53,009 bases of DNA from an uncultured Gemmatimonadales bacterium (GCA_963695555.1 CAVOGR010000008.1:1-53009); one strand, 5' to 3'; counted from the first letter of the stretch, positions 9,496 through 53,009 are shown. Notes: a model not told the origin generated them from the letters alone. Made by a program: numbers and translations.

Positions 9496-9637
9496 ATGCC
9501 CTGCGCGGCATGAGAGTGGAGCCGTCTCCGCCGGCCAAAGCCCAAGGCGACTCTGCCCGGGAGACGTCTCCCCTACATTGGCAAACACATAGATGGAAAG
9601 CCTGAAATCAGTCTGAAGCTTCGCTCACCGGCGTCGT

Positions 9638-9655
9638 TAGGGAAAACCCTAGCCC
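9638..9655. promoter_or_regulatory. TAGGGAAAACCCTAGCCC palindromic motif upstream of paralog B
   Basis: Identical 18-mer at 48264..48281; 16-bp match at 51194; 16/18 reverse-complement match at 12070..12087. Confidence 0.45.
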
Positions 9656-39225: not shown

Positions 39226-40305
39226 TCAGTGTGGAACCCCGGTGAGTTCCACGCGGTACACCTCGGCTTGCCACCATCCCTCGGAAGCTTCTCGCAGGCT
39301 AGCGACCACACCTGGTCGAATAGCCTGAAGAAATGGGTTGTTCGCAAGACGTCTGGTGGCCACTACGGACCAAGTGGCTGGGTCAATGACCTCGATGATG
39401 CCGTCAAAGACCGCTGCCATATCCTCCACGGGATAGTAGCGTGCTCCACCCTCTCCAGTACGCTCTTCGCCGAGCCCGTTACTCCAGTCGGGGTCACCAG
39501 TTGCCCCGAGGACCCACAGCAGACCGATGCTATCCTGCCAGATACTCCACACCTGCGCCTGAGGCACCCTATCGGGTGTGGGAGACATGATCGAGTCGTA
39601 GGGCGCGAACCATGGTGAGTTCACCATGCCACTGTCGAGCAGCGTGCCAGTGGCATCCCACCTGGTGCCGAGGTATCCGTGATGTGCCTGAATTGCCCAC
39701 ATACTACCGTCGCTGGCAGTAGTAATTTTGTACACGTCCCGGACAAAGCCGCGGGTGTTGAGTTGTGGATAGCCGAACTGGACAAGCCGTTGGCCGTCGA
39801 AGCTATAGGCATGGAGCGGAGGACTCGAATCTCTCTGGTAATCGAAAACAAAACCATGCCCTGGTAATAGCATCGCGTCATAGGCCCAGGGACGCTGGCC
39901 AGCGATGGACATCGTGCGGACGACCTCGAAGGAGGGCGACAACACGGTGATTCGCCCGATGCCGTCCAGGATGTAGACGGAGTCGCGGACATCGACAAGC
40001 ACGGCACGGGGATACCGGTACTCGCCCGGGCCATCGCCCTCGCGGCCTTGCTTGCGAAGGAACCGGCCAGTGGAGTCAAAGACTTGTAGGACGCGGTCGC
40101 CGTCTGGTGTGATCGCAATGTATTGGCCACGGCCGTCACGCGATATGCGCGGGGGGGCGACAAAGGATCCGGGTGTTCCTCTGCCTCCAATGGTCGTCAG
40201 ATACTCAATGCTGATTGCGCACGTCTGACATGAGAGTGGCTGTCCCTCCGGGCGACACCCGGACAGGCCCAGCAAGACCAGCGTGCTTGGTATGAGTCGG
40301 AGCAT
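39226..40305 (-). CDS. Cassette: 6-bladed beta-propeller/NHL-like lipoprotein
   Basis: Lipobox LSGC; FDSTGRFLRKQGREGDGPGEY motif. Confidence 0.75.
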   Translation of the reverse strand: MLRLIPSTLVLLGLSGCRPEGQPLSCQTCAISIEYLTTIGGRGTPGSFVAPPRISRDGRGQYIAITPDGDRVLQVFDSTGRFLRKQGREGDGPGEYRYPRAVLVDVRDSVYILDGIGRITVLSPSFEVVRTMSIAGQRPWAYDAMLLPGHGFVFDYQRDSSPPLHAYSFDGQRLVQFGYPQLNTRGFVRDVYKITTASDGSMWAIQAHHGYLGTRWDATGTLLDSGMVNSPWFAPYDSIMSPTPDRVPQAQVWSIWQDSIGLLWVLGATGDPDWSNGLGEERTGEGGARYYPVEDMAAVFDGIIEVIDPATWSVVATRRLANNPFLQAIRPGVVASLREASEGWWQAEVYRVELTGVPH

Positions 40306-40323
40306 GAATCTGCCGACAATGCC

Positions 40324-40420
40324 ACCTAACGAACGTGCGCGTTGAGCCGCCGCGCGCCTCGTTCTGTCGCGTTCTAAAGAAGATGCCTCACGCGCGGGCG
40401 GCTCCAACGCGTGGTTCGGC
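40324..40420 (-). repeat. attC (unique type, 97 bp)
   Basis: Minus strand GCCGAACCACGCGTTGGAGCCG...CGGCTCAACGCG...GTTAGGT. Confidence 0.85.
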
Positions 40421-40443
40421 AGCGTCACACCTCGCGCCCGGCC

Positions 40444-41670
40444 TCAATTGAGTCCTCGATACACCGCTGCCCTGAGTTGTTTCTGGATCTCCCAAGAGAA
40501 TGGGAACGTCCTCGTCATGAACAGCCCGTAGACACGATTCTCGTAGTCGATCCAGAAGTGCGTGTTGTGATAGCCCGACCAGCCATAGATGCCCCTCGGG
40601 GAACCTGCCCCGTCCAAGGCGGGCTCCGTCAGCACCCACAGTGAGTACCCAAAGTCCTGGCCGTTGTTGTATCCTCGCCGCAGCCTGCTCTCCGTTGCCA
40701 CCGACGTCATCATCGCGATCGACTGCTCAGTCAGAATTCGTGTGCCGCGAAAGTTGCCCCGTCCCAACAACATTTCGCAGAAATGCCGGTAGTCCTCGAA
40801 CGTGCTGACCAGGCCCTCGCCACCGAACTGCGCCTTCGTGCCGGGTGAATAGGCGAGTTCATCATCTGCGGTCGAAAAGGCAGAGGTTCCTTCATCGAAC
40901 ATTGCGGGATCGATCAGTGGCTTTGGCTTCTTGAAGAGCACCTGCCAGCGCGATCGGTCGGCGGCGGACAGCTCGAATTTCGTGTGCGGCATGTCGAGCG
41001 GGTCGAAGATGCTCTCCTTGAGGAACGCATAGAACTCCTGCCCGGTCAGTACTTCGACGACTCGACCCAGAATCGCCATGTTGAGGCCGTAGAGATAGTC
41101 GGCACCTGGTTCGAACTCGGCGGGATGCGCGGCCACGTCCTTCACGAACTGATCAAGGTTGGCGTAGGGATCCAGATGGCTAGGCCCCTTGCCGCGGTCA
41201 TAGTAGCCGTAGCCACTGCGATGCGTGAGCAGATGAACCACTTGGAGCTCGGTCTTGCAGCGATACGTCTTGCCGGCCTTATCCTTGCACTTCATGTCGG
41301 CGAAGTAGGGAATGTACTTCGACACCGGGTCGCCCAACTTGTACAGTCCTCTCTCGTGCAGGATCATCATCGCCACAATGGTGATCGGCTTGGACATAGA
41401 CCAGATCGGGAAGATCGTGCTGTCCGATATCGGCGTATCGCCCACCAAGCCCGAGTTGACGATTGACATGGCAACCGTGTCGGAACCCCTGAAGACTCCC
41501 GCTACGCTCCCGGCGGTCACGCCCCTCGCAATAAGCGCCCGCTGGTATGCCTCGACATTCCGTTGCACCGCCTGATTCCGCTCGTCCGTCGCAGGACCAG
41601 GACGGCCCGCGCACGACGCGAGTCCCACGAGAGCCAGGCTCGAGACGATCGTCCGGACGTAAGTCGGCAT
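40444..41670 (-). CDS. Cassette: serine hydrolase, class C beta-lactamase/esterase family lipoprotein
   Basis: SMSK (SxxK), LLTHRSG, FEPG..Y.Y and YGWSG motifs. Confidence 0.88.
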   Translation of the reverse strand: MPTYVRTIVSSLALVGLASCAGRPGPATDERNQAVQRNVEAYQRALIARGVTAGSVAGVFRGSDTVAMSIVNSGLVGDTPISDSTIFPIWSMSKPITIVAMMILHERGLYKLGDPVSKYIPYFADMKCKDKAGKTYRCKTELQVVHLLTHRSGYGYYDRGKGPSHLDPYANLDQFVKDVAAHPAEFEPGADYLYGLNMAILGRVVEVLTGQEFYAFLKESIFDPLDMPHTKFELSAADRSRWQVLFKKPKPLIDPAMFDEGTSAFSTADDELAYSPGTKAQFGGEGLVSTFEDYRHFCEMLLGRGNFRGTRILTEQSIAMMTSVATESRLRRGYNNGQDFGYSLWVLTEPALDGAGSPRGIYGWSGYHNTHFWIDYENRVYGLFMTRTFPFSWEIQKQLRAAVYRGLN

Positions 41671-41746
41671 ACGTCTGGCCCTCCCTTGTCTTCTTGATGC
41701 CCGAGACCGCATCCTGCGCCTCCTCGGGCCATTCCCGTTCGAGTCT

Positions 41747-41878
41747 GCCTAACGGACGGGCGCTCAGCTGCGAGCCCGGCTGACCGCCAGCGGGACCGCC
41801 CCGAGGCCCGGTGTCCAGAGACTACCAGAGCCCGTTGCAGCGACGCATGGGCTCGTCAGCTGCAGCGCCTTGTTAGGC
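41747..41878 (-). repeat. attC (unique type, 132 bp)
   Basis: Minus strand GCCTAACAAGGCGCTGCAGCTGAC...GCAGCTGAGCGC...GTTAGGC. Confidence 0.88.
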
Positions 41879-42304
41879 AGCGCGCTCCCCAAGATCTAGC
41901 ATGTAGATCAGCTCTGGATCTCCGGGATCGAGGTTGTGAATGACGCCACTGGGAACGTACCCGAGCGCCTTGAGAAGCTGCTGCATGGGTTGGTTCGATT
42001 GGTTCGTCGATGTGAATAGCTTTCGTGTCTGGCACTGCGCTGCGAGCTCCTGCATGAGAGCGCGGCCAATACCTCTGCGTCGTTCAGACTTAGCCACGTA
42101 GACGATGGAGACGAAGCCCTGTTCGTAGAAGGTGTAGTCCAGCGCAGCATATGCCACTACGGCCCCGTGGCGTTCTGCGACGAGGCAACCTCCTGATCTA
42201 AGGACTCGGTCAATGAAGCGCACGCGTGCCGGATCAGCGCGCGCGACGTGGTCGAGGGCGACGATGGCGTCCCCATCTGAGGGAGTTGCTTCGCGAATTT
42301 GCAT
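41873..42304 (-). CDS. Cassette: GNAT N-acetyltransferase
   Basis: RRRGIGRAL motif A, FTSTNQSN; TAA lies in R''. Confidence 0.88.
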   Translation of the reverse strand: MQIREATPSDGDAIVALDHVARADPARVRFIDRVLRSGGCLVAERHGAVVAYAALDYTFYEQGFVSIVYVAKSERRRGIGRALMQELAAQCQTRKLFTSTNQSNQPMQQLLKALGYVPSGVIHNLDPGDPELIYMLDLGERAA

Positions 42305-42319
42305 GACCTTGGTCGCGCT

Positions 42320-42426
42320 GCCTAACGAATTCCGCGTCAGTGGCGGGCCGTCTCGCCTGCCTGCTCACAAATCAACGACTTCCTTCAGTCCCGGCAAGGC
42401 CCGGCCACTGCATGCGGCGGTTAGGC
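42320..42426 (-). repeat. attC family A
   Basis: 107-bp consensus copy. Confidence 0.9.
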
Positions 42427-42475
42427 AGCACGTCACAGCATCATCCACTTACTACTGAAACTTGACTCTCTCTTA

Positions 42476-43048
42476 CTACATCCCGCTGAATTGCTCAAAA
42501 CTCTGGCCACTCGTCAGAAATATGAGTGACCCTATAAACAGGCCTAGATTGGCGATGACCGCGAGACTAACGATCACCCAACCTACCACCGGGCGGGAAT
42601 GCAGGTGGTACCCGATGTTGAAGAAAGCCGGGGCCGCGAGGGGCAAGTTGTGAACCCCCAGCACGAGGAGTGTGATCGCTAGCCAAGCATTGAGAACCAG
42701 CGTCGTGCGGCCGTGCTCGTTGTCGGAAGCGAGCACCCTCCGCGTGTGATAGATGATCCACCAAGAGGGGGCAGCCAGGGCGATGCCGATCAGGTAGAAC
42801 ACTAGCATCGGGCCGTTCAGCGCCCCCAATACGAGCTTGGTGGTCACGGCCAAGAGATGACCAAGCGCCATGGTCCCGATCGTAACCCCGAAGAACAGAT
42901 TCATGGCTGCCAACACCCGCCGTCGGGCGGGAGTATCCACACGGCGGTTCCGGTAGAGCAGCATCGTGACGGCAAGAAGGGCGAAGCCCAGCGATGCCGT
43001 CAGCCATTTGCTTTCGTCCACGATAAGCGCAAACAATTGATCGATCAT
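42476..43048 (-). CDS. Cassette: hypothetical multi-pass membrane protein
   Basis: About 5-6 hydrophobic segments; start MIDQLF after attC. Confidence 0.75.
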   Translation of the reverse strand: MIDQLFALIVDESKWLTASLGFALLAVTMLLYRNRRVDTPARRRVLAAMNLFFGVTIGTMALGHLLAVTTKLVLGALNGPMLVFYLIGIALAAPSWWIIYHTRRVLASDNEHGRTTLVLNAWLAITLLVLGVHNLPLAAPAFFNIGYHLHSRPVVGWVIVSLAVIANLGLFIGSLIFLTSGQSFEQFSGM

Positions 43049-43068
43049 TCCGGTGCTCTCTGTGTGCT

Positions 43069-43175
43069 GCCTAACGAATCCCGCGTCAGTGGCGGGCCGT
43101 CTCGCCCGCCTGCTCACAAATCAACGACTTCCTCTGAAACCAGCAAGGCCCGGCCACTGCACGCGGCGGTTAGAC
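43069..43175 (-). repeat. attC family A
   Basis: 107-bp consensus copy. Confidence 0.9.
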
Positions 43176-43209
43176 CGCAGTCCATCGGATCGGAGCTATG
43201 CGAGCCCTT

Positions 43210-44013
43210 TCAGGTAATCATGGTCAGATCGACCCTGACAACGATCCATGCTGAGTCCGTCCGGCGCAGGTAGTACCTGTGGGTGGCTGCGAAGGGCCAC
43301 CAAGAGCCCGGTTGGGTCTCACCACGTGGGCGGACCGATGTCTGAAATACATCTACCGCGACGGTGTCTGACGTAACCGCCAATTGTGGACGGGAGAAGG
43401 CGAACGTCACGCCTACCTTATCGACGTCGCAGTGTCCTTCCGGGTCGTCATCGCAACGACCGTCGAAGGCTGGGTGTTGGCCGACACGGTCAATCAGCCT
43501 GTCGCTGTGACGCCGAGTCAACTCGATGGAGGAACGTTCGAAGATCATGTTCGTGATGTATTGTCCCCCGGGTCCCCAACTGTTGTCCAGGGAGTCCGCG
43601 ACGGCATCGAAAAGCTCGGCCAGCACGGAGTCGCTGGGGTTCCAAGGTTTCCATAGGCGGTGGAGCGAAGCGTCGTAGCGATACGGGATACTGTCGTGGC
43701 CGGCGAGCGTATCCATACGCGGGACGTAATCTAAGTCCAGAAACTGGAGGATCCATGGTCGAGAATCTGGATTGCAGTAGAGGGCGTAGGTACCATCGCG
43801 CTTAGAGATTGTTCCACAGCTGGCGCCGTTTGCCTGCACAAAAACATGCGATAGAGGAGTACCGGATACATCATCCCGCACGCCACCCGTAATGCACAAT
43901 CGAAAGATCGTGCACTTCAGAGTGGGATCTTGCGTGAGCTCTTGCGCATGCACCTCGACCGAGCTCAGACTGATCACGCACCCAAGTATTGCGGCATGTA
44001 TGCGTCGGTCCAT
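43210..44013 (-). CDS. Cassette: secreted protein with carboxypeptidase-regulatory-like domain
   Basis: Signal peptide; ITGGVRDDVSGTPL..V..GTISKRDGTY pattern. Confidence 0.65.
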   Translation of the reverse strand: MDRRIHAAILGCVISLSSVEVHAQELTQDPTLKCTIFRLCITGGVRDDVSGTPLSHVFVQANGASCGTISKRDGTYALYCNPDSRPWILQFLDLDYVPRMDTLAGHDSIPYRYDASLHRLWKPWNPSDSVLAELFDAVADSLDNSWGPGGQYITNMIFERSSIELTRRHSDRLIDRVGQHPAFDGRCDDDPEGHCDVDKVGVTFAFSRPQLAVTSDTVAVDVFQTSVRPRGETQPGSWWPFAATHRYYLRRTDSAWIVVRVDLTMIT

Positions 44014-44035
44014 GGATTCAACATGTTTGACTGCG

Positions 44036-44142
44036 GCCTAACGAATTCCGCGTCAGTGGCGGGCCGTCTCGCCCGCCTGGACACTAATCAACGACTTCCT
44101 TCAGTCCTGGCAAGGCCCGGCCACTGCACGCGGTGGTTAGGC
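44036..44142 (-). repeat. attC family A
   Basis: 107-bp consensus copy. Confidence 0.9.
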
Positions 44143-44150
44143 GGATTCAT

Positions 44151-44179
44151 TTGCTCTATATAACGTGATACGTTATATT
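44151..44179 (+). promoter_or_regulatory. sigma70 promoter with overlapping operator of higBA
   Basis: TTGCTC-17bp-TATATT; inverted repeat ATATAACGT-GAT-ACGTTATAT at 44158..44178. Confidence 0.8.
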
Positions 44180-44184
44180 TCGTC

Positions 44185-44481
44185 ATGCTCCTCCACTTCG
44201 CGTCGGCAGGCACGGCGGACATCTTCCACGGGGTGGACTCTAAGGCCGCCAGGAAGACGTGTCCGCAAGCGGTGTGGAAGGTGGCCAGGCGGAAGCTGGA
44301 CCAGCTGAATCAAGCTGAGCAACTCGACGACCTCCGAAGCCCGCCTGCCAATCGGCTCGAGAAACTCAAGGGCGATCGCGTCGGGCAGTATAGCATTCGG
44401 ATTAATGATCAGTATCGAGTGACGTTCGCGTGGACCGATCGCGGACCCGATCAGATAGCGATTCTCGATTACCATCGGTAA
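44185..44481 (+). CDS. higB: HigB-type toxin (RelE/ParE superfamily)
   Basis: RKLDQL, DLRSPPANRLEKLKGDR.GQYSIRINDQYR and DYH motifs. Confidence 0.93.
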   Translation: MLLHFASAGTADIFHGVDSKAARKTCPQAVWKVARRKLDQLNQAEQLDDLRSPPANRLEKLKGDRVGQYSIRINDQYRVTFAWTDRGPDQIAILDYHR

Positions 44482-44492
44482 GTGAGGCCCCC

Positions 44493-44831
44493 GTGCTCCC
44501 AAAGAACCGACCACCGACCCACCCGGGCGAAATGCTCCTCGAGGAATTTCTGAAGCCACTCGGCATGACCCAAACCGAGTTGGCCGATCTCATTCAGGTG
44601 TCCTACCCCCGCGTGAATGAACTCATCAACGGGAAGCGGGGGGTCACCCCGGATACCGCACTCCGGCTTGGGCGGCTGCTGGGAACAACGGCAGAATTCT
44701 GGTTGAACGGGCAGCGGAATTGGGATCTCTGGCACGCGATGCACGGCCCCAACGCCGTACGGTTGGGCCGAATCCGCCCCCTTGGTGGCCCGGCACGGAT
44801 GCGGCGATCAAGATCTGACCGTTCCGCCTAA
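44493..44831 (+). CDS. higA: HigA-type antitoxin (HTH)
   Basis: PTHPGEMLLEEFLKP, NELINGKRGVTPDTALRL and FWLN.Q motifs; stop lies in the adjacent attC box. Confidence 0.93.
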   Translation: MLPKNRPPTHPGEMLLEEFLKPLGMTQTELADLIQVSYPRVNELINGKRGVTPDTALRLGRLLGTTAEFWLNGQRNWDLWHAMHGPNAVRLGRIRPLGGPARMRRSRSDRSA

Positions 44832-44932
44832 CGAATCCCGCGTCAGTGGCGGGCCAGCTCGCCCGCCTGCTCACAAATCAATGACTTCCTTGAAAACCAG
44901 CAAGGCCCGGCCACTGCACGCGGCGGTTAGGT
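44826..44932 (-). repeat. attC family A
   Basis: 107-bp consensus copy. Confidence 0.9.
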
Positions 44933-45283
44933 AGCATCGTTTCGATACATCAGCGCCGCGTTCCAACTGTCCAGAAGGTCCGCCACGAGAGTTAGCTCCT
45001 GAGGAGAGCCACCTGGGGGCTGCGCAAGCCCGGCCTCCAGGCCGCCCAAAGCGTTGACCAAGGCGTCCAGTTCATCATTCGTCAGGTCGATGACAAAGAA
45101 GTCGGTATCCGGGCCACCCTCATGCCTCTCAGGCTTGGCTACTGGAATCGTCTGCGCAAGCTGATCGAGGCGCCGTCGGAGGTCCCGATGCTGCGGTGCC
45201 AGGCGCCAAGCTGTGGCTTCGATAGCCGACCGGGGGAGAACATCCGGTCGCGCGCAAATGCTGTGATACTCGGCCGTATCCAT
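44927..45283 (-). CDS. Cassette: hypothetical protein (118 aa)
   Basis: Fills the cassette; TAA lies in R''. Confidence 0.7.
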   Translation of the reverse strand: MDTAEYHSICARPDVLPRSAIEATAWRLAPQHRDLRRRLDQLAQTIPVAKPERHEGGPDTDFFVIDLTNDELDALVNALGGLEAGLAQPPGGSPQELTLVADLLDSWNAALMYRNDAT

Positions 45284-45300
45284 GAGCCTGGGTCGTGTCT

Positions 45301-45406
45301 ACCTAACGAATCCCGCGTCAGTGGCGGGCCAGCTCGCCCGCCTTGGTCAAATCAAGGACTTCCATTGAAACCAGCAAGGGCCCGCCACTGCACGCGGCTG
45401 TTAGGT
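45301..45406 (-). repeat. attC family A
   Basis: 106-bp copy. Confidence 0.88.
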
Positions 45407-45409
45407 ACC

Positions 45410-46183
45410 CTAATGACATGAAAACTCCGGCTCTAACCACAAGGCTTGACCTGGGAGCACAGCTCTGAGCTCGGTAGTCCACAAGAGCCCATCTATTCTG
45501 ACGATCGGGAAGTGTCCTCCAAACCGCTCGGGGAACTCTCTGTAAGCGACGCTATCGACGATGACATGGTAATCCTCTCCATGGTCTATTGTTCTGGGAC
45601 TCTCACGAGTTGGAAAGTTCTCTGGCCAGTCATGGGCAGGTACGTCGTCCCTACCAGCCCGCCAAATGATGACCTCCCCCTCCGCAGGAAACCACTCCGC
45701 TCCGTCTTTGTAGCTGTGTGTCAGATCAACGAGGGCATCATAGAGAGCGACGAGGTCGCGGGGGGCAAGGTCCCTTCTCTCCTTGGTATCCAGCCCTCCC
45801 CTCACGATGACGCGCTTGGATCGTGTAGAATCGGCGACATAAATCATGAGGATCGGTTGGTCACTCCACCCCTGTGTCAAGTCATAGAGGTCACGGAGCT
45901 CATAGAACGTATCGGGCACGGGTAATGCGTTGAGAATCTCATGAAGTGCCCGAGGTGAGAGGTGAGTCGAGCTGAACCGCACCTCCCACCCCCGTCCACT
46001 GCATGCGATGACGAGACCATCGTCGTAGCCTACGAGGCTTGGATATCCCGGGCAGTTGCCCGAGCCCCAGTAGCTGCAGCGGTACAGTACGAAAAGCGGC
46101 CTCCGCTCACTCCGTTCGTAATAGGAAGACGGAGGCGGCAAGCATGCGCTCATACCGACGACGAGAATGGTGGCTGCAAGCAT
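45410..46183 (-). CDS. Cassette: hypothetical lipoprotein
   Basis: MLAATILVVGMSAC lipobox; fills the cassette. Confidence 0.7.
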   Translation of the reverse strand: MLAATILVVGMSACLPPPSSYYERSERRPLFVLYRCSYWGSGNCPGYPSLVGYDDGLVIACSGRGWEVRFSSTHLSPRALHEILNALPVPDTFYELRDLYDLTQGWSDQPILMIYVADSTRSKRVIVRGGLDTKERRDLAPRDLVALYDALVDLTHSYKDGAEWFPAEGEVIIWRAGRDDVPAHDWPENFPTRESPRTIDHGEDYHVIVDSVAYREFPERFGGHFPIVRIDGLLWTTELRAVLPGQALWLEPEFSCH

Positions 46184-46195
46184 GGGGATTGTGGT

Positions 46196-46303
46196 ACCTA
46201 ACGAATCCCGCGTCAGTGGCGGGCAATCATAGCCCGCCCTCTCACAAATCAACGACTTCCTTTGAACCCAGCAAGGCCCGGCCACTGCACGCGGTGGTTA
46301 GGC
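46196..46303 (-). repeat. attC family A (GGGCAATCATAG subvariant)
   Basis: 108-bp copy. Confidence 0.9.
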
Positions 46304-46709
46304 AGCAGACCCAAGTTTCCACGCCGTCACGGCGCGGCCAACCACAGAGCTATGGCAATCGTACCAAATGAGTAGCCAGGACAGGTGGCGTCCTCGCGAA
46401 GCAACGAATGCATAGACGGCGCTGACCAGGAAAGTCCACCGCATGATCGCTACGGCATCCCAGGCCCTCGGCCCCAAGCCAGGCTGGAGCGCGAGCGCCA
46501 GGATCATGCCTGCGAACCCCCACCACGCGATGCTCGTCAGGTGCCATCCCATTCGGAGCGTTCGCTTTGTAAAGACGTCACTGCCGAAAAGGTGTGGCAG
46601 ATCTTGGCGCCGGAACAAGCGCCTCAAGATGAAGCGCTCACCGAGCCACGAATGGAGAATGCCGGCGGCTGCGGCGATTATCGCGCCGACCAACAGGTAT
46701 GGGATTCAT
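46298..46709 (-). CDS. Cassette: small membrane protein, copy 1 (indel near start)
   Basis: HSWLGERFILRRL, TLRMGWHLTS and SRGRHLSW motifs. Confidence 0.65.
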
Positions 46710-46743
46710 CCGGTGGTTTGTGGCATCCTATCGGTCTGTTGCT

Positions 46744-46852
46744 GTCTAACGAATCCCGCGTCAGTGGCGGGCAATCATAGCCCGCCCTCTGCACAAATCA
46801 ACGACTTCCTTTGAACCCAGCAAGGCCCGGCCACTGCACGCGGTGGTTAGAC
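46744..46852 (-). repeat. attC family A (GGGCAATCATAG subvariant)
   Basis: 109-bp copy. Confidence 0.9.
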
Positions 46853-47257
46853 AGCAACCCAAGTTTCCACGCGGTCACGGCGCGGCCACCCACAGAGCTA
46901 TGGCAATCGTACCAAACTAGTAGCCAGGACAGGTGGCGTCCTCGCGAAGCAACGAATGCATAGACGGCGCTGACCAGGAAAGTCCACCGCATGATCGCTA
47001 CGGCGTCCCAGGCCCTCGGCTCTAAGCCGAGGCTGGAGCGCGAACGCCAGGATCATGCCTGCGAACCCCCACCACGCGATGCTCGTCAGGTGCCATCCCA
47101 TTCGGAGCGTTCGCTTTGTGAAGACGTCACTGCCGAAAAGGTGTGGCAGATCTTGGCGTCGGAACAAGCGCCTCAAGATGAAGCGCTCACCGAGCCACGA
47201 ATGGAGAATGCCGGCAGCTGCGGCGATTATCGCGCCGACCAACAGGTAGGGATTCAT
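46847..47257 (-). pseudogene. Cassette: small membrane protein, copy 2 (frameshift near 47030)
   Basis: Near-identical to copy 1. Confidence 0.65.
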
Positions 47258-47292
47258 CCGGTGGTTTGTGGCATCATATCGGTCTGTTGGCT

Positions 47293-47400
47293 GTCTAACG
47301 AATCCCGCGTCAGTGGCGGGCCATCTCAGCCCGCCTGCTCACAAATCAACGACTTCCTTGAAAGCAGCAAGGCCCGGCCACTGCACGCGGCTGGTTAGGC
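47293..47400 (-). repeat. attC family A
   Basis: 108-bp copy. Confidence 0.88.
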
Positions 47401-48106
47401 GTCAGCCGAACGGTCTTAGTTTTGCGGGCCGAGTCCCAGCATGGGCTCAGTTGCCAACCATCCAGCCATGGACGGCCAGGACTGACTCAAGGGGGCCTCT
47501 GTGAGCCGGTCATGCGGTTCGCAGCGTGGTATACCCTCGCTTACGTTTCCGTGCGGAGCAAAAGGGGGATGCCTTTCTTGGGTAATCGATGCGGCCGCTT
47601 ATGGAACGGGCATACTGGTGGCTGCATGGGCCGTCTTTACGGGGAGCGAGCTGTTCGCGGGCTCAAGTTAGTATTCGGCAGGACGCAGACCATGTGTCTC
47701 GCGAGGAACTTGAGCGCAGTTCTTGCGAGAGGCGCTAGAACTGCCAGCTCCAGGGTGGGTGGTGAACTCGTGAGCTTCCAATCTGCGGTTGGTGAACGGC
47801 CATTGAGGTGCCGACACCTTATGCGTCCCATGTAACACGTGCCTATGTATCTGCGTTTCGGGGCACGAGGCCAAGAGCAGCCAGTATCTTGCCTGTCAGC
47901 TAGTATGGGCAGCTACCTCGATTCGGCTTCGAGAGATGCCTGGAAAGTGGTATGCAACGGGATGAACCGACAATCAGACTAGCTGCTTATGAGGCGCAGC
48001 TTCGGTTTGTCAAATTGTGCCAGACTCAGAGAGCTGGGTCGAATACCTGGAACGAGAACAAACCGGATTTCTAGACGGCCAGGTCTTCGAGTGCGTAGCC
48101 CTGGCC

Positions 48107-48214
48107 GCCTAACGAATCTGTGTCAGCTGCGGGCCCTATGCCTGCCCTCACACAATTCAACGGCTTCCTTCAAAACACAAGCGCCCGCCCGTCAGCTGCA
48201 CACGGCTGTTAGGG
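48107..48214 (-). repeat. attC family B
   Basis: GCCTAACGAATCTGTGTCAGCTGC...CAAAACACAAGCGCCCGCCCGTCAGCTGCACACGGCTGTTAGGG. Confidence 0.88.
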
Positions 48215-48407
48215 CCCCGGCCGCACGACCCGGTCCGGACAGACTCCGGACTGCTCGGAGCACTAGGGAAAACCCTAGCCCACCCGGGCGTACCCGGAGC
48301 GGAGCGACTCGCGCGCCGCGGAGCCCGTCTCGACAGAGACGAACAACCACCAAAGTGGTTGAGGAATTGGAACTGAAACGGAGGCGCGGAGCGTCGAGGC
48401 CTAGTCT
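48215..48407 (-). other. Gene-less cassette family, copy 1
   Basis: Homologous to 51145..51333 and 52079..52268; no conserved intact ORF. Confidence 0.75.
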
Positions 48408-48524
48408 GCCTAACGTCTCGCGATTCTGCTGCACGGCCCGTCTGCTAACAAGGGGCGCGAGCTGAAGGCGAGTGGCCCGCCCGCCCTGCAGGTAACCCGT
48501 GTCAGTAGCAATCGCTTGTTAGAA
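48408..48524 (-). repeat. attC (unique type, 117 bp)
   Basis: Minus strand TTCTAACAAGCGATTGCTACTGAC...GCAGCAGAATCGC...GTTAGGC. Confidence 0.85.
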
Positions 48525-48542
48525 AGCACGCGCCTCAAAAGC

Positions 48543-48986
48543 TCAACCGCCGCTCGTGTCTGGGCTCTCCGACCGGACGATCATTTGGTTGCCGTCGAGG
48601 TCTGTGAACGTGAACTGGCGTCCCTGCCAGGAGGGACCGATCGGCGCTCGCACGACACCGCCATGCTGCACTACCCGAGCAAAGATCATGTCTAGATCTT
48701 GAGTCAAGATCACAATACCGGGACCTGCGCTCCTTACGCTGTCGCGCAGCGCGAGCCCTATGGCCACCGGCGGCGCGTCGAGGACCGCGTAGGACGAATC
48801 AGGGCGGCTCGCTCCCCAGTCGAAGACTGCCTGATAGAAGCTGACAGCGCGCTCGAGATCTATCACCTGGATCTCGAGGAGCTGAATGCTGTTGTCGTCA
48901 GGACGACAAGCAGGCAGCGCGAGTAGGGCAAGGCAAAGCCATCCGCACTTCGAAGCCGACTGCCTACGATCGGTCGTCCTCCACAT
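48543..48986 (-). CDS. Cassette: VOC/glyoxalase family protein with lipoprotein-like leader
   Basis: EIQVIDLERAVSFYQAVFDW and FTDLDGNQ motifs. Confidence 0.82.
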   Translation of the reverse strand: MWRTTDRRQSASKCGWLCLALLALPACRPDDNSIQLLEIQVIDLERAVSFYQAVFDWGASRPDSSYAVLDAPPVAIGLALRDSVRSAGPGIVILTQDLDMIFARVVQHGGVVRAPIGPSWQGRQFTFTDLDGNQMIVRSESPDTSGG

Positions 48987-49002
48987 CGCTCTCCCCCGTG
49001 CT

Positions 49003-49109
49003 TTCTAACGAATCCCGCGTCAGTGGCGGGCCGTCTCGCCCGCCTGTGCACTAATCAACGACTTCCTTTGAAACCAGCAAGGCCCGGCCACTGCACGCGG
49101 TGGTTAGGG
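49003..49109 (-). repeat. attC family A
   Basis: 107-bp copy. Confidence 0.9.
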
Positions 49110-49706
49110 AGCACGGTGAACTACGAGTACTCACCCACCGAGGATGACCGATCGGGCGCTGTACGCGGCACCAGGGTGCCACGATTTGCGAAACACGTCG
49201 ATCGTAGAACCCGATCAGGAAAATGCGTGAGCCGGAGTCACGACGGAGGGCACGGTCAGCAATTGGCCAGGCCGGTATCTTGCGTGGATGCTCAGAGACT
49301 CGTCTCCATAGCGGTGCAGAAACCTGCGCGCGGCCCTGGCACCGACGCAACGTACCATCGAGGGCCGGCGGCCAAGCTCCTCGTTCCAAGCGGACCGACC
49401 GTGAAGGAAAACCGTGACAACGGGAGGCGCTTGCGCAGGTGCTTGCTAGATCTGGTCACACAATCGGCCCGCGCCAGCGATGACGATCCAGCCGATGCGC
49501 CAGATCGGCGTTCGGTTCGGACGACCATCCCGATCAGCAGAGCGGACTCAGCCGCTGTCGAAGCCATCGCCAGCCAAGATCTCTCGCTACGCTCGGATGG
49601 GGCCGGCTGGTCAGGTGGCACACGTGATGGGTCGCTCTAGGAGCACCCTAGCAGGCCGAGTGTCGATCGGCAGTACCTGCAGCTAGTCTCGGAGTGCCGG
49701 TGCGTC

Positions 49707-49814
49707 ATCTAACGAATCCCGCGTCAGTGGCGGGCCGTCTCGCCCGCCTGCTCACTAATCAACGACTTCCTTTGAGACCCGGCAAGGCCCGGCCACTGCA
49801 CGCGGTGGTTAGGC
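49707..49814 (-). repeat. attC family A
   Basis: 108-bp copy. Confidence 0.9.
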
Positions 49815-50603
49815 TTCACTTCAAGAGGCTATGCAGGGGCGTGATCTGTCGGATCGGATCCGATGACCGGTTCCACGTCAGGATTATGATGCGGACTGCC
49901 GTTGGCAGACTTGTACAGAATGTCGTCCTGGCTCACCCGGTGCTGAGATCCTTCGTTGCTGAGGCTGACCAGATCTGGTGACCTCAATGTCCAGCGAGCA
50001 CCTGCAATCGACAGTGGTGAACATCGCAGGCATATCTCGTAAAGTTCAGCGTATCGGATCCAGACTGATCAGCAATTAGCTTCTTACGTCCCATTCCGCT
50101 CCGAGTGACGCTTCTTACGACGCCTGCGTCATCGTCGAGCCACCTGAAGCGCCTCGTGTGGGTCGCACGCTCCAGCTCCTGTCATGTGCCCGGAGGGCGT
50201 CGCTTTTGGTGGCGAGTCGATCAGCGAGCTGATCATGCCGCCCAGAGTCTCAAGTGTCGGTCACTAGAGAACGCGGGAGAGTTTGAGGCGTAAGATGGTG
50301 CTGCAGACCAAATCTCGAGCAGACCTCTTAGGACGAGGATGGTAGTTTCGAGCAATCCGGTCGTCTTTGAAATCTGGAGTCAGCGCTTCGTCCATGAGCA
50401 CATGCCGTACGGATGAACACCATGCTCGCATCCAGGAGCAATTGCTCATCCTCAGGACGTCCAAGAAGTACGATTTCTTCGGCTCGGGTGTCGGAGAGCC
50501 GGTCGAGAGTCCACCTCATAATCTCGCGAGGGGCTGATCAAAAGGACGCCCTGACCGAAGCGCTGGGGGGTATGGTACTTTTCGGATCACGATATCAGAT
50601 GCA

Positions 50604-50711
50604 GCCTAACGAATCCCGCGTCAGTGGCGGGCCATCTCGGCCCGCCCTCTCACAAATCAACGACTTCCTTTGAAACCAGCAAGGCCCGGCCACTGCACGC
50701 GGCGGTTAGGA
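50604..50711 (-). repeat. attC family A
   Basis: 108-bp copy. Confidence 0.9.
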
Positions 50712-51036
50712 GCGACGCTGCACTCCGTCGCGCACCGGTGCGTGCAGTAGGCCGAACGACGAGTTGACGATGCACCGGACGCACGTGCGATAGAGAACAG
50801 TAGCGAGCGTCACCGCCCTCCGTGCTCGTGACAGTCTGGTGCGGATGCCATCGAGCGTCAATGCGCCCGAAGCAGAGGCTGCGATGCACGCCGCCGGCGG
50901 AGACGCTCGACTCGAGGACGTCGTAGAATGACCTCGACGCATCGCGATATGCCGCCGATCGTCAATCCAGGTGCTGCCCTGGCGAAGTCGGGATCTGAGC
51001 TCGTCGATTTCTGAGGACCGAACGTCGCCAGCGTCC

Positions 51037-51144
51037 GCCTAACGAATCTGTGTCAGCTGCGGGCTCTATGCCCGCCCTCACACAATTCAACGGCTTCCTT
51101 CAAAACACAAGCGCCCGCCCGTCAGCTGCACACGGCGGTTAGGG
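51037..51144 (-). repeat. attC family B
   Basis: Near-identical to 48107..48214. Confidence 0.88.
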
Positions 51145-51333
51145 AGCCGGCCGCACACCTCGGCCCGGACAGACCCGGGACTGCTCGGAGCGCTAGGGAA
51201 AACCCTAGCTCACCATGCGCGTACCCGGCGCGGCCCCGTTGCTTCAAGGAACCGACCGGAACGACGAACAACCACATCGTCCGTTGAGGAATTAGGAACT
51301 GAACCGGAGTTGTGGAAAGCGAAGGCCTGGTCT
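51145..51333 (-). other. Gene-less cassette family, copy 2
   Basis: Shared blocks CCGGACAGAC..GGACTGCTCGGAGC, GACGAACAACCAC and GGAACTGAACCGGAG. Confidence 0.75.
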
Positions 51334-51440
51334 GCCTAACGAATCCCGCGTCAGTGGCGGGCCGTCTCGCCCGCCCATGCACTAATCAACGACTTCCTTC
51401 AAACCCAGCAAGGCCCGGCCACTGCACGCGGTGGTTAGAC
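51334..51440 (-). repeat. attC family A
   Basis: 107-bp copy. Confidence 0.9.
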
Positions 51441-51973
51441 AGCAGCTCCCTATCGGCGACTCGTCTCGAACTGTCTGCGGCTAAGGCCCCATAAGATCAG
51501 ACCGTCCGTGTCACCCCATCGCCTCGACGAAGTACGAAGGCCTGATCGCTGGGCCTATTGGGAATCGGGTGAACTGCCGGATGACATGGCAGGCACTCCG
51601 TCTGCAGATCTCATGCCCGGCGTGAGGAAGGCTAGATGTGCAGACAGCATCATCCTCGGCCGTCGATTCGCGGCGGACCCGCACTTCTCGGAGGCGGGAG
51701 CTGTCGCTGCTTCACGTGTCGTACGGCCGAGAGCGTGAGCCGGTCCCGGGCAAGTCGGCATCAAGTGGCCAGTCGAGCCTATCGCGGGTCGAGCACGACT
51801 CGAGAGACGTTGGACCACTCTGCTCTCGGCGACCGGCCTCAACGGGCGTTAAGCTGGCCGACGAGCTCGCCCCGAGCGAGGGCATTCTGCCGATACAGCC
51901 TGGTCGAGCAGAAGCGCGACAACCTCACGTATCGGTTGCTTGTGAGCTAGTCACGAGGCTGGTGTTGGGATGC

Positions 51974-52078
51974 TGCGCACGAATCCGTGTCTAGTGGCGC
52001 TCAGCCCGCCTGTACACAATTCAACGACTTCCTTCAAAACACAAGCGCCCGCCCGTCAGCTGCACACGGCTGTTAGGG
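51974..52078 (-). repeat. attC family B, degenerate on the R' side
   Basis: Right half matches family B; left end TGCGCACGAATCCGTGTCTAGTGGCG lacks the AAC/GTT core. Confidence 0.7.
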
Positions 52079-52268
52079 GAGCCGGCCGCACACGTCGGCC
52101 CGGACAGACCTGGGACTGCTCGGAGCGAGGGAACACCGTATCCCAACCGCGCGACGACCCGGTGCGGACCCCTGGGTGCGAGGAAGCCCGCCCGGGTCGA
52201 GACGAACAACCACATAATCCGCTGAGGCGATTGGAGACTGAACCGGAGGTGGGAGAGTAAGGCCGTCT
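52079..52268 (-). other. Gene-less cassette family, copy 3
   Basis: Same conserved blocks as copies 1 and 2; palindrome degenerate. Confidence 0.75.
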
Positions 52269-52375
52269 GCCTAACGAATCCCGCGTCAGTGGCCGGCCGT
52301 CTCGCCCGCCCATGCACTAATCAACGACTTCCTTGAGTCCCGGCAAGGCCCGGCCACTGCACGCGGCGGTTAGGC
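52269..52375 (-). repeat. attC family A
   Basis: 107-bp copy. Confidence 0.9.
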
Positions 52376-52603
52376 AGCCCCTTTGGACTTGCGGGGCTTC
52401 CAGTCCAGCGAGAGTCGGCGGCCACTGCCGGCACAATCGCGCAAATACAGGTTAATCAACGTCTGGTAGGGAATGCCCGTCTCCGCGGCGAGCTCCTTGA
52501 AGTACTCAATCGTCGGTTCATCAAGCCGGATGGTGACCGACTTCTTCAAGCGCTTGGCGTAGGGATTCCGTCGCCCTTTTGAGAAATCATATTCGCGTCT
52601 CAT
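52370..52603 (-). CDS. brnA: BrnA/CopG-type antitoxin
   Basis: MRREYDFSKG..NPY, VTIRLD and GIPYQTLINLYL motifs; TAA lies in R''. Confidence 0.88.
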   Translation of the reverse strand: MRREYDFSKGRRNPYAKRLKKSVTIRLDEPTIEYFKELAAETGIPYQTLINLYLRDCAGSGRRLSLDWKPRKSKGAA

Positions 52604-52896
52604 AGTTCCCATCTCTGCGCATACTCGCGGCGCTCTGATCGAGTTGCCTTCCGGGCCGAGATGATGCGGATCGTCTCGTCGGTCTCACGGTAGCAATGGC
52701 ACACCACCAGTGTCCGGAGGCCCGCACTGAACCCCAACAAGAGGAAGCGATCTTCGCTGGCGGAGTGATCGGGATCATCGAGCAACACCGCACGCTCATC
52801 GGCAAAGACCGTCTCGGCCTCTTCGAAGCTGACCCCGTGCTTCCGTTGGTTGGTGCGATTCTTCGGTGGATCCCACTCGAACCGGAGGTCAGCCAT
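52600..52896 (-). CDS. brnT: BrnT-family toxin
   Basis: FEWD..KN..N.RKHGVSFEEA, DPDHS..EDRF and IRIISAR motifs. Confidence 0.92.
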   Translation of the reverse strand: MADLRFEWDPPKNRTNQRKHGVSFEEAETVFADERAVLLDDPDHSASEDRFLLLGFSAGLRTLVVCHCYRETDETIRIISARKATRSERREYAQRWEL

Positions 52897-52901
52897 ACTT
52901 C

Positions 52902-52930
52902 AATGTACATACGGAGTATGTACTTCGCAA
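52902..52930 (-). promoter_or_regulatory. sigma70 promoter with overlapping operator of brnTA
   Basis: Minus strand TTGCGA-17bp-TACATT; inverted repeat GTACATAC-GGA-GTATGTAC at 52905..52923. Confidence 0.78.
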
Positions 52931-52962
52931 GGTCGCGGATACTTCTGCTTTGGGGAGGGACT

Positions 52963-53009
52963 GCCTAACGAATCCCGCGTCAGTGGCGGGCCACTCAGCC
53001 CGCCTGCTC
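52963..53009 (-). repeat. attC family A, cut by window end
   Basis: GCCTAACGAATCCCGCGTCAGTGGCGGGCC... Confidence 0.85.

Follow-up and report, generated by a model that had tools for sequence, protein, structure and literature searches.

Introduction

What does an integron cassette deliver to its host when it carries no gene? The question is raised by three dispersed but mutually related units, each of about 300 bp, in a cassette array of an uncultured Gemmatimonadales bacterium, found in a stretch of 53,009 nt (GCA_963695555.1 CAVOGR010000008.1:1-53009) that is referred to here, at its whole length, as the window. The analysis presented below shows that these units belong to a cassette family that is non-coding, multi-copy, recently mobile and restricted to one genus, and that a cis-element of the host is embedded both in the family cassette and in attI. 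As to what such a cassette is for, we lean, tentatively, toward a mobile non-coding cassette whose payload may be a binding site for a putative host factor, with either a regulatory or a decoy function.

Three Cassettes in the Distal Part of an Integron Array

The initial annotation of this DNA had drawn attention to three related units, and a BLAST search with the body of copy 2 recovers the other two where they had been placed (copy 1, E = 5e-28; copy 3, E = 8e-36). Copy 1 lies at 48113..48413 (body 48215..48413, attC site 48107..48214), copy 2 at 51043..51339 (body 51145..51339, attC site 51037..51144) and copy 3 at ~51976..52274, all on the minus strand. Read on that strand, each unit starts with TTAGGCAGAC, continues into a body of ~196 nt and then into an attC site of ~108 nt, a type here called attC B. 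If a cassette is taken to start with TTRRRY, and an attC site to be bounded by an inverse core RYYYAAC and a core GTTRRRY, the boundaries are those of integron cassettes, in that the units start with TTAGGC and end with attC B (CCCTAAC ... GTTAGGC). Copy 1 is the most diverged of the three. Copy 3, for its part, has an attC B that is decayed at the R'/L' end, its terminal R' core reading GTGCGCA where GTTAGGC stands elsewhere (83–85% identity to the other attC B sites), and the palindrome that is described below is broken in its body.

Folded as single-stranded DNA of the plus strand, both the attC B of copy 1 and the common attC of the array form a long stem whose 3' arm has two bulges of one base each, which is the imperfect hairpin, its extrahelical bases confined to one arm, by which attC sites are recognized; the minimum-energy DNA fold of copy 2's attC B differs from that of copy 1's. 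In attC sites the extrahelical bases lie on the R''/L'' arm and mark the bottom strand, which is the one recombined. We read the cassettes of this array on the minus strand because three indications coincide, namely these bulges on the plus strand, the strand of the integrase, and the strand of the Pfam-matched open reading frames (ORFs) of the cassettes, all of which are on the minus strand (GNAT, 41873-42304; glyoxalase, 48543-48986; BrnA antitoxin, 52370-52612).

The integrase itself lies on another contig of the window's own genome, designated G000 and 87% complete. A profile match to the integron integrase (TIGR02249) is found there at C7:852589-853532 (locus L043), on the cassette-sense strand of the array that follows, and the attI region of G000 is conserved with that of G002, which, like G004, is a sister genome of the same genus. 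The family cassettes are accordingly members of an integron array with both an integrase and attI. Integrase and cassettes share one strand, an arrangement described for Treponema according to Blanco et al. (2024, PMC11014356). The TIGR02249 match on C7 is split over three frames (218, 128 and 66 bits), and the split integrase is either a frameshifted pseudogene or the product of an assembly error.

An ORF at 40444-41712 was also considered as the integrase and was rejected, as it encodes a PF00144 beta-lactamase-family protein and lies outside the array. Since this ORF is not IntI, and since the integrase is on another contig, the window must hold the distal end of the array. What the window contains of this sedentary array occupies 41735..53009 (minus strand), and the array continues past the end of the window, with attC sites of ~105–115 nt at a spacing of 300–900 nt. 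Across G000, nhmmer finds 43 attC sites, with arrays at the ends of contigs C7, C8 and C10.

Copy Number, Mobility and Range

The repeated amplification that the initial annotation had proposed is borne out at the level of the whole genome. There are eight full copies in G000: the three of the window, a tandem run of three on C10 (C10:34076, 34374 and 34671), one at C10:36716 and one at C7:857409. G002 has five copies, four of which form a tandem run. In addition, a profile search of G000 detects a remote full-length relative at C10:31987-32217 (E = 3e-12), as well as a cassette at C7:855179-855342 that shares only the 5' ~130 nt of the body and whose attC, 81% identical to attC B, is among the next most similar. 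Two short cassettes that might have been taken for members (C7:857719 and C10:36333) showed no relation to the family. Finally, a half copy (C7:384290-384414) stands at the end of a two-cassette cluster. The cluster as a whole (C7:384290-384910, locus L009) is a small group of attC sites without an integrase, in which a membrane-protein cassette with a short attC of ~76 nt is followed by the truncated 5' half of the family body, which abuts a convergent gene for a glycine-rich membrane protein.

How far does the family extend? A BLAST search of 101 related genomes, G000 included, gave matches in four (G000, G002, G004 and G029). Those in G004 comprise two full and two partial matches, the partial ones proving by alignment to be diverged full-length bodies, one of them cut by the start of its contig; outside the genus this search returned only a 25-nt match, in G029. 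An exact two-block pattern run over species-representative genomes matched only two sister metagenome-assembled genomes (MAGs), labelled Gemmatimonadales, and a plasmid collection yielded no match to the family. A sequence model (R1) run over 151 genomes did return eight weak matches (E 0.002–0.008) in seven out-of-genus genomes, and these were set aside as noise because none lies near an attC. Judged by these searches, the family appears to be confined to one Gemmatimonadales genus, no credible copy having been found outside it.

The claim that attC B accompanies only this body likewise holds, both in the genome and in metagenomes. All six attC sites of G000 that are at least 95% identical to that of copy 2 flank a family body (48107, three on C10, C7:857607, and copy 2 itself), as do the attC of copy 3, at 85% identity, and an end fragment of 26 nt at C10:36912. 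When metagenomes were scanned with an attC-B pattern, six loci on five contigs came up; a family body adjoins the attC at five of these loci, and at the sixth only 10 nt of body remain before the end of the contig. It should be said that, the attC being a component of the cassette, cassettes that are paralogous have it in common, and a private attC type is therefore unremarkable.

Two aspects of sequence divergence bear on the history of the family. In 121 of 136 pairs of copies, attC B has diverged less than the body (median identities 88.9% and 82.5%); between copies 1 and 2, for example, identity is 97.2% over the attC and 72.2% over the body. Furthermore, identity between bodies falls as low as 56% (median 83%), and housekeeping DNA compared among G000, G002 and G004 is 93–98% identical. 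As copies of the body are less alike than housekeeping DNA, the variants predate these species and circulate among them. Movement also appears to be recent. In G002 the four tandem family cassettes stand directly after attI (C5), and the fifth copy, on another contig (C9), immediately follows an attI-like site that adjoins a tRNA gene, with one variant 99.5% identical at both arrays. It is from near-identical copies at two arrays, together with first positions at attI, that we infer spread by recombination; the family cassette would move and multiply by ordinary integrase-mediated attC × attI and attC × attC recombination.

A Body Without a Gene

By the definition of Blanco et al. (2024), which leaves room for neither an annotated gene nor an ORF above 210 bp, the cassette counts as gene-less. 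Frames that begin within it extend to ~51–53 codons at most, and the ORFs of 80–98 amino acids begin in the neighbouring attC. A small-protein gene would have as its product a peptide of ~51 amino acids, MWLFV...LTAVCS, and the frame for it is, as the initial annotation had noted, open in copies 2 and 3 and off by one base in copy 1. In the alignment of 20 bodies that was used for frame and block counts, this frame is intact in nine (eight with ATG and one with TTG), frameshifted in five, interrupted by in-frame stops in four, and without a start codon in the remaining two. The eight open frames with ATG, the further one with TTG, and a G+C content of 0.76 at third codon positions (GC3), as opposed to 0.66 at positions 1 and 2, speak for the peptide. 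On the other hand, 11 of the 20 copies are broken or lack a start, and open frames of such length are expected by chance at this G+C.

The pattern of substitution points the same way. Variable columns at codon positions 1, 2 and 3 number 20, 19 and 23 among the 14 gap-identical copies, and 14, 11 and 10 among the nine intact ones, so that there is no excess of third-position variation; just three of the 21 variable codon columns are purely synonymous, the other 18 altering the residue. Neither of the marks of a small-protein gene, a kept frame and a synonymous bias, is thus present, nor is any other reading frame of the body kept across copies. Broken frames and substitution pattern together effectively refute the peptide, to which we accord almost no credence. 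The body is non-coding, as had been proposed on first inspection and as the broken frames and the lack of codon-position bias now attest.

A Host Palindrome in the Cassette and in attI

If no protein is encoded, what in the body is conserved? The five conserved blocks listed in the initial annotation are all present in the alignment, around a centre that is diverged and carries indels, and the alignment confirms that conservation is uneven, with some elements strongly kept. The best conserved element of the body is a palindrome, CTAGGG-TTTT-CCCTAG; 19 of the 20 bodies in the alignment retain its core, TAGGG..CCCTA, unbroken. In the window it stands as CTAGGGAAAACCCTAG at 48263..48278 in copy 1 and at 51193..51208 in copy 2.

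The same motif occurs in the host genome, in intergenic regions. The strict pattern CTAGGG-N4-CCCTAG has 19 sites in G000, six in family copies and 13 elsewhere, as against none for the reversed control pattern, CTAG being ~6.5-fold under-represented in this genome. By a crude mapping of ORFs, none of the 13 non-family sites falls within a credible one, and they adjoin genes as unrelated as those for a Ser/Thr kinase, a BTAD regulator, pilT and a LuxR-type regulator, among others. An origin of the palindrome in an insertion sequence or transposase was rejected, the flanking ORFs being unrelated genes, and seven palindrome-bearing loci gave neither Rfam matches nor tRNAs. The motif is particular to the genus, elsewhere in which there are 15 sites in G002, 10 in G004, 5 in G001 and 0 in G003; the other 56 relatives have 0–3, compared with 0–4 for the control pattern.

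What is kept at these sites is the arms. The pilT site, which lies 34 nt upstream of the start codon, has identical arms in four genomes of the genus, and between G000 and G001 its spacer and most of its intergenic flank differ, the region being 71% identical. G002 and G004 likewise retain the site that precedes the kinase gene, with its spacer altered. Arms that do not vary around an A+T-rich spacer that does, together with an absence of compensatory changes, point to a palindrome that is probably recognized as a sequence by a putative protein and not to a hairpin alone.

The palindrome also marks the insertion site of the array. In G000 (C7) and in G002 (C5), the integrase ends and attI regions of which align closely, it stands ~125 nt upstream of the crossover point of attI, with a copy of a TGCAGTCCAT repeat on either side. 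An alignment of the body with attI finds nothing significant that is shared apart from this palindrome. A host cis-element is thereby shown to be embedded in the family cassette and in attI, and the option of a protein-binding function, one of several raised in the initial annotation, gains support from a palindrome common to cassettes, host intergenic sites and attI. A literature search for the palindrome strings, to which subscription journals and supplements were outside, found no paper.

On contig C2, a degenerate platform has the palindrome twice, 19–20 nt apart, in its attI-like region. This second platform (G000:C2:289100-289990) consists of a remnant of the 3' end of an integrase, the attI-like region, one cassette and one attC. 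Within the window, a near-copy of the palindrome (TAGGGTTTTCCCTA core) stands at 9636..9651, between two minus-strand ORFs and outside the array. A longer element of ~90 nt, with five intergenic copies in G000 (C1:18040, C1:394835, C2:7273, C2:25445 and C6:249), is laid out as a CGTGA...TTCACG hairpin followed by TAGGG-N4-CCCTAA and ATCCCGAC, with no Rfam or tRNA match nearby.

Alternative Explanations for the Conserved Body

A body that acts as a structured sense RNA, expressed either as part of the array transcript or from a promoter of its own, would fold into several hairpins and might serve as a small RNA (sRNA), for example through an anti-Shine-Dalgarno CUCC, or as a processing, stability or antitermination element. 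We regard this as unlikely, folding models giving weak to moderate support for a conserved RNA fold in the body. The initial suggestion of a structured RNA is not upheld beyond this, and it is weakened by the want of any Rfam 15 match at E <= 1 in 40000-53009 on either strand and by RNAalifold, which predicts several hairpins with a covariation term of ~0. The consensus fold of the inner body reaches -35.5 kcal/mol in the sense orientation (z -3.9) and -25.1 kcal/mol in the antisense (z -2.5) relative to column shuffles, but such a difference between strands can come from base composition alone. In the consensus structure 94.7% of cells are paired and four pairs have changes on both sides; its covariation score of 0.135 exceeds that of shuffles (0.100) and of slid controls (0.02–0.065), controls that overstate the support because the structure was derived from the very sequences on which it was tested and the copies are close kin. 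Single-sequence z-scores average a weak -1.7 in sense and -2.3 in antisense, although the most diverged copies have the most stable folds (z -3 to -4.6). The diverged centre retains a nested hairpin, with differing sequences, in nearly all 21 variants, the sense form being more stable than the antisense in 17 of the 21, yet the stability of this hairpin is not above that of shuffles (z-scores not significant across the 21 variants). The strongest "hairpin" of all is the palindrome, which behaves as a sequence-specific DNA element without compensatory changes. The sense strand, with 9–13 UCC and almost no GGA, would suit an sRNA: over the seven family-only array bodies TCC runs at 48–66 per kb and GGA at 0–11 per kb, whereas other cassettes have 16 and 18 per kb. 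Two RNA libraries, X7 and X14, yielded contigs across the bodies and attC sites, but so, in similar proportion, did a DNA run (X1), and the contigs have neither strand nor starts; those of X8 cover the glyoxalase cassette and not the bodies. With RNA-library cover so like DNA cover, nothing follows as to transcription either way. A promoter cassette of the Vibrio or Treponema kind, in which a sense or antisense promoter drives or silences neighbours far from Pc, seems to us improbable. In its favour, the array is long, with its distal part far from attI, and the only A+T-richer patch of the body has an nAnnnT hexamer, in both orientations and in most copies. However, there is no conserved -35-like element, and the mobile promoter of the initial annotation finds no counterpart in a consensus scan (TTGACA-N16-18-TATAAT, both strands), which detected no sigma-70-like promoter or terminator-like site in the three window bodies, no site reaching 9 of 12 matches. 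In silico prediction is reported to fail in Vibrio, where most gene-less cassettes tested had sense promoter activity, but the present bodies, at ~63–68% G+C, are unlike those A+T-rich cassettes, whose activity may in part be spurious (PMC11014356).

A selfish minimal cassette is a possibility that we take seriously while still doubting it. Here attC B would be an efficient recombination site and the body mostly filler, its ends extending the attC stem, with the palindrome either a hitch-hiker or of service to the cassette only. In keeping with this, attC B is the better conserved part, the copy number is the highest of any cassette seen here, with tandem runs, and family members hold first positions at two attI-type sites in G002, with one almost unchanged variant at both. 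Decayed relics exist as well (copy 3, C7:384290 and C10:31987). The body ends, moreover, pair mutually and extend the R box. The initial annotation had stated that the ends lack extended complementarity, and this has to be revised, since pairing beyond the core exists; what stands is that it is interrupted, by a C:C mismatch after six contiguous pairs. End duplex energies are -11.4 to -13.6 kcal/mol for the seven cleanly measured family cassettes and -6.4 to -17.8 kcal/mol for other cassettes of the arrays. Mere filler, however, would not be expected to keep internal blocks (the palindrome, TCCGAGC.GTCC and TGT.CGT) invariant or nearly so in 20 copies despite body identities as low as 56%, nor to remain free of indels across 140 nt in 14 of the 20 copies, and the host conserves the palindrome independently, as a motif in its own right. 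The selfish, sense-RNA and promoter explanations are not mutually exclusive.

Base composition gave rise to some further observations. CTCCG on the sense strand is 8-fold over its genome frequency, T is about twice as frequent as A, and the excess of UCC/CUCC finds no explanation among the readings tested. A CsrB/RsmZ-type sponge on the antisense strand, with its 9–13 GGA, was rejected, as no CsrA (PF02599) was found in the 87%-complete G000, the sister genomes not having been searched. Helical phasing of the CTCC motifs was not convincing.

A Putative Protein-Binding Site as Payload

The explanation to which we incline, with the reserve that its sequence-based footing calls for, is therefore that of a mobile non-coding cassette carrying a putative host-factor binding site, regulatory or decoy. 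Its payload would be not a protein but a cis-acting palindrome of 16–20 bp (GAGCTAGGG-TTTT-CCCTAGC), the same one that the host keeps in about a dozen intergenic regions and in the attI region, and a dimeric host DNA-binding protein would be the putative binder. Each inserted cassette would then add an operator to the array, be it a roadblock, an activator site or a decoy, and the eight copies would enlarge the cell's pool of palindrome sites by about a third.

A number of observations weigh against such a payload. The LuxR-type regulator beside one of the sites was considered as the binder of the palindrome and dropped, its locus not being conserved in the sister genomes. The consensus scan of the three bodies found no promoter-like site. 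Copy 3 and the remote relative at C10:31987-32217 are without the palindrome, so the cassette can persist lacking it, and the attI-like site of G002:C9, which did take a family cassette, has no palindrome in the 330 nt upstream that were examined. The other conserved blocks and the UCC/CUCC excess are not explained by a single protein site. It could also be that the palindrome was captured merely along with a piece of intergenic DNA. Lastly, the genomes that bear the family are mutual closest kin, and co-occurrence of family and palindrome is for that reason confounded by descent.

The presence of the palindrome at attI allows for a further variant, in which it is a shared accessory-factor site: a host protein bound to the palindromes of attI and of the excised cassette would join the two and favour integration at attI. 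We think this a long shot, albeit one that would explain the first positions, the tandem runs after attI in G002 and the high copy number. Were it true, a gene-less cassette would have co-opted the site of a host regulator to target the head of the array, and the inserted copies would be extra operators partitioning array transcription.

Other Features of the Array and Genome

The distal boundary of the array is marked by its last attC, of a diverged type, at 41735-41877, which adjoins the beta-lactamase-family gene. Two neighbouring cassettes, at 46309-46702 and 46857-47251, are duplicates (96–98% identical) with a minus-strand ORF of ~130 amino acids that has no Pfam match. The glyoxalase cassette upstream of copy 1 has a third attC sequence type, at 48408-48524, that was missed by the attC profile. 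At 52370-52910 (minus strand) lies a toxin-antitoxin cassette, in which the BrnA/CopG-type antitoxin gene (52370-52612) overlaps an upstream ORF of 107 amino acids, and which is covered by contigs of the RNA libraries X7 and X14. Side matches in BLAST revealed related short tandem repeats, with a period of ~7 nt, at many loci of G000 (for instance C1:9650-9746, C1:28931-29006, C2:28213-28284 and C7:258122-258182).

Relation to Known Systems and Significance

Non-coding integron cassettes have a precedent in sRNA-Xcc1 of Xanthomonas, an integron-borne sRNA cassette; the present family is alike in being a non-coding cassette and differs in that its region has no Rfam match at E <= 1. The palindrome, for its part, recalls the dispersed operator or decoy sites of bacterial DNA-binding proteins, which it resembles in its palindromic form, invariant arms, variable A+T-rich spacer and intergenic position, in being kept at orthologous sites, and in numbering roughly a dozen or more per genome. 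What is different here is that a mobile cassette carries copies of the site, and that the site is also present in attI.

The closest comparison is with the gene-less "promoter cassettes" of Vibrionaceae superintegrons, which are 491–666 bp long and A+T-rich, with measured promoter activity (Blanco et al. 2024, PMC11014356). Both groups reside in a sedentary chromosomal array, are devoid of genes and of ORFs above 210 bp, and are proposed to regulate their neighbours; this family, by contrast, is ~300 bp long and G+C-rich, has no promoter-like site, and is a single family with eight copies, tandem runs and a host palindrome. The ORF-less promoter cassettes of Treponema integrons, for which promoter activity has been shown (as cited in PMC11014356), belong to another phylum and are likened to the present ones by description only. 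That gene-less cassettes might hold binding sites for regulatory proteins is an idea already published (PMC11014356), and for this reason the family is best seen as a further case of known gene-less cassettes, one that adds a concrete candidate site.

Gene-less cassettes make up 6–49% of Vibrio chromosomal integron arrays by the figures given there (PMC11014356), a sizeable share, and what is known of their roles comes solely from tests for promoter activity in Vibrio and Treponema. A search of the literature on Gemmatimonadetes integrons, with subscription journals and supplements outside its range, found no relevant paper. The family extends gene-less cassettes to a G+C-rich, uncultured Gemmatimonadales lineage, and it offers a testable payload in the form of a palindrome that the cassette has in common with the attI region and with promoter regions of the host, for example the one upstream of pilT. 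Should nothing bind this palindrome, the family would be a good example of a minimal and possibly selfish cassette. If, instead, a host factor does bind, this would be the first case in which the idea of a "protein-binding-site cassette" can be tested with a known sequence, and control of the array, or the targeting of cassettes to it, would be linked to a host regulon.

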